From a virus (Duplodnaviria > Caudoviricetes), in IMG/VR virus record IMGVR_UViG_3300020045_004589, positions 1 through 32,663 of that record: a stretch of 32,663 bases of DNA. One strand, given 5' to 3'. The position numbers were made by a program, and so were the translations under genes. The stretch's first letter is position 1. The number at the start of each line of letters is the position of its first letter. Shown piece by piece: positions 12,102 through 14,475 of this stretch. Below the pieces are notes generated by a model, which was not told the DNA's origin, ran no database searches, and saw only the letters and a list, made by a program, of their open reading frames with translations.

Positions 12102-12574
12102 AGACGGCATACGAGAAGGCAGTTGACGACATATTCGCAGCCGCGCTTGATGAAAGCACAAATAGGCTCACCACCGAACAATTCAAGAAGGCAATAGCCG
12201 AACATCTCGAAGTAGTTTTCGTACCTCGCATCGAAGAGAAAAGCGACCTTGACAGGCTGCGTGAAGTGGCGCGAGGAGAACAAGCCCCCGCATGGAAGCC
12301 GGAGGACTTGATCGGCAAGCTTGTTGAAATGTGGGATGACGGCTATGAGAACGAAAAACCTGTTTGCATTCTCGATGGGTTTGACATCACCATGAATAAG
12401 TCTTTGCATGGGCATCTAGGCTATGACCACATCCGCCCCCTCACCGAAGCCGAAGCGCTCGCGCTTGTGTGGAAGCCAAAGCCGAAGACGCGGTATGACG
12501 ATTGCCCGGAATGCAAGTCAACATATCCAAACGCACACGCGCCAGACTGCAAAACAGGACAGGCTTTTCAATGA
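12098..12574 (+). CDS. hypothetical phage protein
   Basis: 158 aa, GGAGG RBS, C-terminal CxxC...HxxxC. Confidence 0.75.
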   Translation: MKTAYEKAVDDIFAAALDESTNRLTTEQFKKAIAEHLEVVFVPRIEEKSDLDRLREVARGEQAPAWKPEDLIGKLVEMWDDGYENEKPVCILDGFDITMNKSLHGHLGYDHIRPLTEAEALALVWKPKPKTRYDDCPECKSTYPNAHAPDCKTGQAFQ

Positions 12575-12726
12575 CCGCCACCGTCCAACAGGTAGCCGAC
12601 CAACTGGACCTATCACCTCAGTACGCCGCTAACGTGGTCGCCGAGGTGGAGAACCGCGCACGGTGGATACGCGAACAAGCACAGATAAACGACGACCTTG
12701 AGGTCGCGGAAGAGGACGGGGATTGA
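12571..12726 (+). CDS. small HTH-like protein
   Basis: MTATVQQVADQLDLSPQYAANVV; ATGA overlap. Confidence 0.55.
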   Translation: MTATVQQVADQLDLSPQYAANVVAEVENRARWIREQAQINDDLEVAEEDGD

Positions 12727-12727
12727 T

Positions 12728-13171
12728 ATGCGCGAAAGTGGGTTTTACGGAATAGGTGTATTCATGCCGAAAACAGAGCACAACTATTGGACATTATTCA
12801 GAACCGCGCAAATACTGGACGCTGATTTTCTGTTTCTAATCGGCGCTAGATTCAAAGTCCATTCGGCCGATACGATGTGTTCATATCGTCACATACCGGT
12901 TTTTTCATATACTGATTTTCAGGATTTCAATTCTCATCGCCCATTCGATTGCAAGCTTGTAGGTATAGAGCTTACCGACAACGCAATCGAAGTAAGCGAG
13001 TACAAGCACCCAAAAAGGGCCGTATACTTGCTCGGGGCCGAGGACAACGGCCTATCACGCGAATGCATAGACAATTGCCAAGACATAATAAAGCTACACG
13101 GTAAAAGATCGATGAACGTATCAGTCGCCGGATCAATCGTTTTGTATGATAGGTATAGGAAGCAGATATGA
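12728..13171 (+). CDS. SpoU/TrmH-family (SPOUT) RNA 2'-O-methyltransferase
   Basis: N.WTLFRTA, LVGIE, YLLGAEDNGLS, SMNVSVAGSIVLY motifs. Confidence 0.92.
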   Translation: MRESGFYGIGVFMPKTEHNYWTLFRTAQILDADFLFLIGARFKVHSADTMCSYRHIPVFSYTDFQDFNSHRPFDCKLVGIELTDNAIEVSEYKHPKRAVYLLGAEDNGLSRECIDNCQDIIKLHGKRSMNVSVAGSIVLYDRYRKQI

Positions 13172-13335
13172 ACCGCTGTTCCGTCTGCGGCCACGATATC
13201 CCGCGCGGTAAAGAGAAGGCGCTAGGCCCTGGGGTAGCGATATGCTACTTTTGCGAGTGCATAATCAAAAAAGATGAGAAGCCGCTATGTACGCGCCTTC
13301 ACCGGCCGCGACGAAAAGCGAAAGCTTGCCGATGA
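13168..13335 (+). CDS. small C4 zinc-finger protein (55 aa)
   Basis: MNRCSVCG...GPGVAICYFC (ClpX-ZBD-like); ATGA overlap. Confidence 0.5.
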   Translation: MNRCSVCGHDIPRGKEKALGPGVAICYFCECIIKKDEKPLCTRLHRPRRKAKACR

Positions 13336-13765
13336 ACGACCAGAAGCGCGCACGCTTTTCAAGGCGGTCAGCTTCCTTTTGTGCCTGGGTGATAGAAAGC
13401 GTAGAGGCGTCTAAATCCATCTGCAATTGCCTCGATTTGGCCTCGGATGTCGCCGCCTTGATTTCTGATTGCGTCAGCGATTCCGTCAATGATTCGTTGC
13501 TGGTCGTCAAGTCGTCGTTTGTTTTCTGCAATGATTCGTTGCTGTCCCTTAGCAAGCCGATTCGCATTTCCAATGTCGCTACGAAGTTGTCGAAGTTCTC
13601 CGGTAAGCTCGACGTTTGAATGAGTAGCTCGTTCCAAAGAGCCGAGGGCGGTTGCGAGTTCGGCGGCGAGCTTGCTATCATTTCCTCGGAAAATGATAAA
13701 CACGGAAGCGATAGCCCAAAGGCCAAGAACAGCGATAACAACGTAAAGCCATTTTTTCGACACAT
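13265..13765 (-). CDS. secreted coiled-coil protein, putative o-spanin equivalent
   Basis: signal peptide with Cys22, Pro-rich linker, long coiled coil, hydrophobic C-terminus; end of lysis cassette. Confidence 0.65.
   Translation of the reverse strand: MCRKNGFTLLSLFLAFGLSLPCLSFSEEMIASSPPNSQPPSALWNELLIQTSSLPENFDNFVATLEMRIGLLRDSNESLQKTNDDLTTSNESLTESLTQSEIKAATSEAKSRQLQMDLDASTLSITQAQKEADRLEKRARFWSFIGKLSLFVAAGEGAYIAASHLF
13368..13763 (-). CDS. putative i-spanin (Rz-like)
   Basis: KK + single N-terminal TM helix + heptad coiled coil; nested in another frame. Confidence 0.65.
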   Translation of the reverse strand: MSKKWLYVVIAVLGLWAIASVFIIFRGNDSKLAAELATALGSLERATHSNVELTGELRQLRSDIGNANRLAKGQQRIIAENKRRLDDQQRIIDGIADAIRNQGGDIRGQIEAIADGFRRLYAFYHPGTKGS

Positions 13766-13774
13766 TCGCGCCTC

Positions 13775-14013: not shown

Positions 14014-14475
14014 CTACGCCTCGAATCCTACATACAAACAGTGCCCGTATCCTTTCGGGTCGTCGTCAACCTTCAAAACTTTTCCAGCCACCGAACGATT
14101 CCAGTAAATGAGCAACGGCGCTCCAGGTTCTTTTCGGTTGATAGGTACAACGTCGTACCCTAGATGAACTTTACCTAGAGCGGATTGATACACGGGATCG
14201 GCGTAATGAGTCGTTATGACTATCGTTTCCTTAAAAAGATCCTTGTCGATGAATAGATTCATCTGACGCGGGGCGGGTTCCGGGGCTCCACCTTCAATGT
14301 CTCGGAGTGTGTACCGAACGTCCTGAAATCCGTGTACGCAATCGGTGTGAAGGTGCGCGGCTGTGCTTTGTCCACTTGTCCCCATTTTACCGATGACGTC
14401 GTCGGTATTTATAGGGTCGCCGACTTCCCAGGCCGGAGCATTTTCAAGGTGAGCAAAACGAACGGTATATTTCAC
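14014..14475 (-). CDS. M23-family peptidase endolysin (circularly permuted)
   Basis: AHL, IGKMGTSGQSTAAHLH, HLGYD, GKV, GYGH motifs. Confidence 0.88.
   Translation of the reverse strand: MKYTVRFAHLENAPAWEVGDPINTDDVIGKMGTSGQSTAAHLHTDCVHGFQDVRYTLRDIEGGAPEPAPRQMNLFIDKDLFKETIVITTHYADPVYQSALGKVHLGYDVVPINRKEPGAPLLIYWNRSVAGKVLKVDDDPKGYGHCLYVGFEA

Follow-up and report, generated by a model that had tools for sequence, protein, structure and literature searches.

What do two reading frames encode when they occupy almost the same DNA at the end of a phage lysis cassette, and what might such a pair of proteins do there? The frames considered here, L and S, lie in the window (the whole stretch of 32,663 nucleotides that was analysed), an 89%-complete virus record whose portal, coat, scaffold and ejection module are P22-like. 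On the minus strand, the last genes of the late operon are, in order, those for a 171-aa multi-TM protein, an 89-aa protein, an M23 peptidase and a 76-aa holin-like protein, followed by the L/S pair; from the opposite side of the pair, plus-strand genes converge on the cassette (Table 1). An earlier note on this DNA described two nearly fully overlapping genes that share a GAGG motif and an ATGTG double start, and the sequence agrees. The overlap measures 396 bp including the S stop, and L is in the +1 frame of S. The TAA stop of the holin-like gene (13777-13775) comes directly before the GAGG (13774-13771). A scan for promoters and terminators was uninformative, with 10 promoter-like sites where shuffled sequence gave 5.6 on average, and no terminator after the pair. 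As for the 171-aa multi-TM protein that heads the cassette, a homologue is found in locus L002, a weak match in orf46 of phage TJE1 and perhaps a counterpart in L009.

Table 1. Features of the window and of compared loci. Positions without a prefix are those of the window; prefixes L030 to L046 denote loci fetched for comparison.
Feature	Position	Strand	Remarks
ORF L, 166 aa	13265..13765	-	predicted SPase I-type signal, Ser/Pro linker, long helix, weakly hydrophobic Gly/Ala-rich C-terminal tail
ORF S, 131 aa	13368..13763	-	Rz-like layout: N-terminal TM anchor, long helix, Gly-Gly hinge, short aromatic C-terminal helix
Shine-Dalgarno-like GAGG	13771..13774	-	5 nt before L ATG, 7 nt before S GTG
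ATGTG double start	13761..13765	-	ATG 13765 opens L, GTG 13763 opens S
L residues 1-26, predicted signal peptide	13688..13765	-	Cys22 not conserved; putative cleavage site
S residues 5-25, predicted inner-membrane anchor	13689..13751	-	same DNA as L signal
L rod, residues 40-140	13346..13648	-	begins at conserved Leu-Trp motif
S residues 113-125, conserved aromatic amphipathic motif	13389..13427	-	G116, F117, R119, L120, Y121, Y124, H125
L tail, residues 141-166	13268..13345	-	single-coded, marginally hydrophobic
Holin-like membrane protein, 76 aa	13775..14005	-	one strong TM, no family match; putative function, from position
M23 peptidase, likely endolysin	14014..14475	-	Pfam PF01551 over cut-off; PHROG endolysin match 6e-8
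Coiled-coil + C-terminal TM protein, 89 aa	14472..14741	-	similar genes in L002, L003, TJE1
Multi-TM protein heading the cassette, 171 aa	14728..15243	-	no family
Single-gene helical u-spanin candidates	L030:3681-4193, L031:2214-2684, L032:4282-4728, L033:4251-4754
TJE1 holin-like gene + L/S pair	L046:4558-5285 = NC_019930.1 36859-37586		offset +5, unannotated
TJE1 L	NC_019930.1 37083-37586
TJE1 S	NC_019930.1 37088-37498

Are both frames genes? Both are conserved across homologues, a check that the earlier note proposed. They are open in 24 of 24 loci, with no stop where about 211 and 173 would be expected; these are not 24 independent trials, since the loci are related and three pairs are close. 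The 24, window included, come from 45 loci fetched before TJE1. Eleven re-finds or copies were left out (L004, L014, L015, L029, L037-L040, L042, L043 and L045), as were the truncated L016, the short chance matches L019-L021 and the endolysin-only L030-L035. In all 24, L lies in the +1 frame and ends 21-47 codons beyond S, and identity to the window drops to 15-20% among them. When one protein was held fixed and its codons were redrawn from phage usage, 9.3 and 8.5 stops were expected and the fraction of open other frames rounded to 0.0000 (20,000 draws). In ordinary genes, none of 3353 overlapping 131-codon segments (13 genes of the window) had an open +1 or -1 frame.

Synonymous variation, another check that the note proposed, is also suppressed: inside the overlap, fewer codons have changed at unchanged residues than in the single-coded tail or in control genes. 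Between the window and L001, such changes number 7/109 in the L frame and 5/104 in the S frame, against 10/28 in the single-coded tail of L; for L009 and L010 the figures are 6/116 in the overlap against 11/44, and the controls give 44/137 (endolysin) and 26/68 (holin). Separately called homologues of L and of S are both present in databases, and gene callers mostly call only one of the two frames. The L family is large: its profile matched 154 representatives at 50%-identity clustering, and Pfam, PHROG and NCBIfam contain no model for it. Near-total dual coding of two membrane rods of the lysis cassette is real and conserved.

How can one stretch of DNA specify two coiled coils? Both frames encode an N-terminal hydrophobic stretch and a long predicted coiled-coil rod, and even the hydrophobic helices are double-coded, the L signal and the S anchor being specified by the same DNA, all of which the earlier note had seen correctly. 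Among the codons of the S rod with a middle T, 475/515 end in T or C (genome background 625/1218), and the hydrophobic positions of the two frames coincide (odds ratio 4.3). Through these properties of the genetic code, one periodicity can serve two coiled coils. A separate observation concerns L002 (3712-4191, compared with 13265-13765 of the window), where the M23 peptidase is 90% identical, yet the dual-coded segment is a different one (S 20% identical), and the last ~100 nt of L are retained. Since S differs while M23 and the end of L are kept, the overlap appears to have been swapped as one module.

Do the two genes always share a ribosome-binding site? The proposed co-initiation holds in 13 of the 24 loci (NTGTG, window included) and fails in the remaining 11, where the starts are offset. 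All 13 shared starts have an SD-like motif upstream, and L begins with ATG in ten of them and with TTG in three; start-codon choice may, as the earlier note proposed, set the stoichiometry of the two products. In the offset class, for which the starts were picked by the analyst among several candidates, they lie apart by +5 or by -16 to -22 nt, and the first start is always on an NTGA stop overlap. Thus, coupling is conserved and the co-initiation device is not; a shared ribosome-binding site or a stop-start overlap couples the synthesis of L and S. In the S-first loci (L005, L017, L022-L027, L036 and L044), it is S that overlaps the NTGA stop, and its first codons give a purine-rich SD-like motif for the L start 16-22 nt downstream.

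What kind of proteins are these? For S, AlphaFold2 predicts helices at 3-101 and 106-124 (pLDDT 73). A single good TM stands at its N-terminus, and after a Gly-Gly hinge comes a short helix bearing the most conserved, aromatic motif of the family; the length of S varies mostly in steps of seven residues. L is predicted to form one helix, residues 40-165 (mean pLDDT 88), and its architecture consists of a Ser/Pro/Thr linker, the Leu-Trp motif, one long helix and a Gly/Ala-rich tail. The features of L that the earlier note listed are present in the window (Cys22 and a Ser/Pro linker at residues 33-41), the C-terminus being only weakly hydrophobic. A site resembling that of SPase I was found by pattern in 63/114 L homologues, and an aromatic residue stands among the last three positions of 63/114 L tails. 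On an approximate insertion-energy scale, values fall below zero in 6% of the L tails (n = 114), in 76% of the S anchors (n = 38) and in 4/4 C-terminal TMs of the single-gene alternatives described below; the L tail scores +4.4 in the window, with a family median of +1.9. The L tail is predicted to be a poor inner-membrane anchor, and some L tails are hydrophobic enough for inner-membrane anchoring.

Family scans of L and S against Pfam, PHROG and NCBIfam found no spanin, holin or other family, and the PHROG Rz-like matches (2/114 members each) are at the level of coiled-coil noise. The ESM Atlas returned unnamed clusters only, in a sequence search of the PDB the S profile weakly matched six generic helical or coiled-coil proteins, and Foldseek on BFVD returned nothing, a single helix being uninformative as a query.

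A further property of the pair is that its two rods are matched in length. In 20/20 loci with landmarks (L002, L003, L027 and L028 have none, and three first picks were corrected by hand), the span from L32 to Y124 in S minus that from W44 to L135 in L is +1. This is trivial in 18 of the 20; the other two carry extra codons at both ends of the overlap, +7/+7 in L025 and +14/+14 in L018. An indel in the middle of the overlap makes the rods equal automatically. At the ends it does not, because the 5' segment encodes S helix and L linker, and the 3' segment encodes L helix and a loose S tail. Among L proteins, 49/114 could be scored with profile landmarks: six are +7/+7, 42 have neither insertion, one is +10/0 and none is 0/+7. 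All six proteins with a 3' heptad insertion therefore also carry a 5' one (Fisher 5e-7, uncorrected for kinship); twenty proteins were dropped for weak landmarks, some of which would read as discordant (P0059 +7/0, P0068 +8/0). The profile landmarks replaced a brittle regex indel count that had given p = 0.057 (25/114 proteins scored, with visible mis-picks). In a FastTree phylogeny of 48 sequences and 150 columns, with modest support, the +7/+7 carriers are scattered over about five positions and L018 stands elsewhere, which implies at least two concerted events and probably more.

Since the matching insertions lie beside the N-terminal anchor of S and the C-terminal tail of L, they favour an antiparallel, end-to-end heterodimer of L and S. 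A parallel in-register dimer was considered and rejected: equal insertions at both ends would not follow from it, and the first heptads of S would pair with the disordered linker of L. The paired-heptad result offers a direct genetic test. When the two proteins were modelled together with ESMFold2, a complex received weak support, with a score of 0.41 against 0.00 for the best control, the controls being unrelated proteins and not coiled coils. The runs agree in at least 90% of contacts, with a partner pLDDT of at least 80, and return no interface or orientation. The mark for this score was reached by 116/157 solved and 2/215 mismatched pairs; at scores of 0.60 or below, those reaching it were only 18 solved pairs and both mismatches.

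What else can occupy this place in the cassette? In loci with enough flank, the pair comes after an endolysin-type gene and small membrane genes, the upstream enzyme being variable, and it stays behind holin-/endolysin-type genes despite different head modules (the P22-like window, the lambda-like L028 record and TJE1). Searching with the M23 endolysin alone gave eight loci, of which two carry the pair, four a single lipoprotein-type gene in its place and two neither. The single gene encodes a lipoprotein signal, a coiled coil and a C-terminal TM, which is the topology of a u-spanin. The L profile matched 0/5 records without the pair (only one of them at least 90% complete) and 5/5 positive controls. 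Homology of L to the single-gene lipoproteins could not be established, the matches of 4-18 bits being similar to those of reversed-sequence controls. In L031-L033 an extra gene lies between the holin gene and the single lipoprotein gene; in L032 it is lipase-like (weak Lipase_3 match).

It is likely that the pair works like a spanin. More specifically, we think it probable, on balance, that L and S are a lipoprotein-free, two-component spanin analogue, an antiparallel zipper joining inner and outer membranes. S would be an N-in/C-out inner-membrane protein like Rz. Signal peptidase I would remove the signal of L, whose tail is probably not hydrophobic enough to stop transfer and would leave the inner membrane and settle in the outer one. 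The free tips, namely the aromatic C-terminal helix of S and the N-terminal Leu-Trp helix of L, would touch through the meshes of the peptidoglycan. At 0.15 nm per residue, rods of 84-120 residues measure 13-18 nm, so that two of them end to end would cover ~25 nm or more. The inter-membrane distance quoted for the host of lambda is 25 nm (available text of PMC5295617); two rods end to end reach it and one zipped rod does not. Once the endolysin had removed the wall, the rods would zip in antiparallel fashion towards their anchors, bringing the N-terminal anchor of S beside the C-terminal tail of L and fusing the two membranes in the way that the spanin model describes. Because an in-frame indel in the shared DNA alters both rods at once, double coding would keep them matched. 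Against the spanin reading, neither protein has a recognised outer-membrane sorting signal, and the tail of L is helical in the AlphaFold2 model and is not a beta signal.

Must the two anchors lie in different membranes? Antiparallel equal rods, with their paired indels, fit equally well with both anchors, the N-terminus of S and the C-terminus of L, in the cytoplasmic membrane. The pair would then be a cis antiparallel rod, a lysis accessory whose target would be the wall, wall polymers or the timing of the holin and which would work whether or not there is an outer membrane, much as proposed for LysZ or LysF1b of actinobacteriophages. Gly/Ala-rich helices often pack together, and both anchors are Gly/Ala-rich (median 0.32). 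Evidence for this alternative comes from TJE1 (RefSeq NC_019930.1), the only isolate with the pair, where both genes, easily missed, are unannotated in the gap after orf48. TJE1 L matches the L profile with 37 bits (reversed control -13); TJE1 S has no match to the S profile (1 bit), and at 58% GC the chance of the frames being open is 0.036 and 0.010. Tetrasphaera jenkinsii is an actinobacterium that lacks an outer membrane. This species is the recorded host of TJE1 (PMC9892861, PMC8597652), a fact that, barring an error in the host record, weighs most heavily against an outer-membrane role. In TJE1, an unannotated 131-aa ORF at L046:6371-6766 also looks exported.

Single-TM lysis helpers are known in Gram-positive hosts (PMC13056207, available in part). 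Like L and S, LysZ and LysF1b of actinobacteriophages are lysis-cassette proteins with one TM, some of them proposed to be spanin-like in hosts without a classical outer membrane. Unlike L and S, they are single genes, LysF1b is predicted to be N-out with a cytoplasmic domain, and the available text of that source describes no double coding for either. Three points count against placing both anchors in one membrane: relatives put a gene of u-spanin topology in the slot, most L tails are poor stop-transfer segments, and a zipped 14-nm rod is shorter than the 25 nm between the membranes of lambda's host (PMC5295617, in its available part). We consider this alternative unlikely, but by no means negligible. 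Attempts to identify the host of the window and its relatives gave no signal: two genome-collection scans found nothing, nor did tblastn of phages and plasmids with L, a distant L and the endolysin; the replisome organiser, the SSB of TJE1 and the integrase of a relative gave no usable host signal, and the ends of a provirus record held no host genes.

Could the pair have a role outside lysis altogether? No family match links L or S to lysis, and an exported pair at the end of a late operon might serve in superinfection exclusion or as a periplasm-spanning accessory. This is improbable, since the pair is kept behind holin-/endolysin-type genes across differing head modules and alternates with a u-spanin-like gene.

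The earlier note pointed to Cys22 in L and to an inversion of the Rz/Rz1 nesting, a reading in which L would be an Rz1-like outer-membrane lipoprotein. In the window Cys22 does follow a hydrophobic stretch, and unusual lipoboxes exist (PMC6139136, in its available part). The family contradicts this idea, which is very improbable: the Cys22 column holds a Cys in 20/114 L homologues, residues 13-40 are free of Cys in 44/114, and only 1/114 has a canonical lipobox. Close homologues at 55-62% identity have no Cys22, and the residue preceding the Cys in the window is a Pro. A scan of the window for lipobox genes found none. As L is no lipoprotein, this is not the lambda Rz/Rz1 arrangement with its nesting reversed. 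Least credible of all is that one frame is a gene and the other a by-product, as the habit of callers to report one frame might suggest, because stops are absent from all 24 loci, synonymous change is suppressed in both frames and each frame has conserved motifs and a start of its own.

If L and S act as a spanin, how do they compare with known ones? With lambda Rz/Rz1 and other overlapped spanins (PMC6139136 and PMC5295617, as far as available) they share the last slot of the cassette and two genes in +1-shifted frames, and one partner, S, has the N-terminal TM, long helix, hinge and short C-terminal helix of that type. By contrast, there is no lipoprotein here, the partner L being a second long helix with a signal predicted to be cleaved and a C-terminal tail. 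The overlap is near-total and begins at the start codons, whereas ~70% of embedded o-spanins start at 0.4-0.5 of i-spanin length (PMC6139136). Ectodomain Cys residues, which serve periplasmic disulfides in Rz/Rz1-type spanins, are nearly absent (S 1/24, L 0/24 loci), the two partners are predicted to be antiparallel and equal in length, and neither matches a spanin family. Like the u-spanin gp11 of phage T1, L has an export signal at its N-terminus and a hydrophobic, if only marginally so, stretch at its C-terminus. Unlike gp11, which is beta-rich (PMC6139136), L is helical and has no lipobox, and in contrast to u-spanins it has a partner and a tail far less hydrophobic than the C-terminal TMs of the single-gene proteins. 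Lacking the defining lipoprotein, the pair is classed neither as Rz/Rz1 nor as a u-spanin.

Spanin searches require a lipoprotein, and ~13% of the surveyed phages of Gram-negative hosts had no spanin by that search (PMC6139136). The same survey (Kongari 2018) allows that a type I i-spanin, or an o-spanin that is an outer-membrane protein, might exist without having been seen. The o-spanins it counts are, by the criteria used there, lipoproteins, and its gene-position Tables S3-S4 could include near-complete overlaps. The literature searched, which lies mostly outside subscription papers and was compared in the available parts of each source (also including PMC8705779, PMC7692668 and PMC10367356), describes no fully overlapped, lipoprotein-free pair.

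SNARE bundles are parallel and have C-terminal anchors. One N-terminal and one C-terminal anchor require an antiparallel dimer, unlike SNARE; the likeness of L and S to SNARE and class I viral fusion coiled coils lies in the proposed zipping from distal tips to anchors in two membranes. No homology to SNARE or class I fusion proteins was found. The analogy between spanins and class I viral fusion has been drawn before (PMC5295617, available in part). That the pair belongs to a third class of membrane fusogens in phages, in which two helices without a lipid anchor, length-matched by dual coding, zip up in antiparallel, SNARE-like fashion, is to us a real possibility, if one somewhat short of an even chance. 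If this is true, the fusogen would supply the missing outer-membrane step for phages whose hosts lipoprotein spanins do not serve, and if the pair fuses membranes, it is a minimal two-helix fusogen of new geometry. Whether or not it does, the pair is a clear example of near-total dual coding, and its overlap appears to keep a protein-protein register intact.

Several neighbouring genes may be described briefly. On the plus strand of the window, convergent with the lysis cassette, positions 12698-13171 encode a SpoU-family RNA methyltransferase (PF00588, 4e-18), also present in L002. A 74-aa ORF (12502-12726, plus strand) overlaps the end of a 158-aa ORF on one side and extends into the SpoU ORF on the other; L002 encodes a similar peptide. 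In the endolysin slot, several loci carry a member of an unnamed family of ~185 aa (L036:913-1494; also L006, L011, L023, L024, L028 and orf48 of TJE1). The family is a candidate for a new endolysin type, and its member in L036 has a weak match to YkuD (L,D-transpeptidase).
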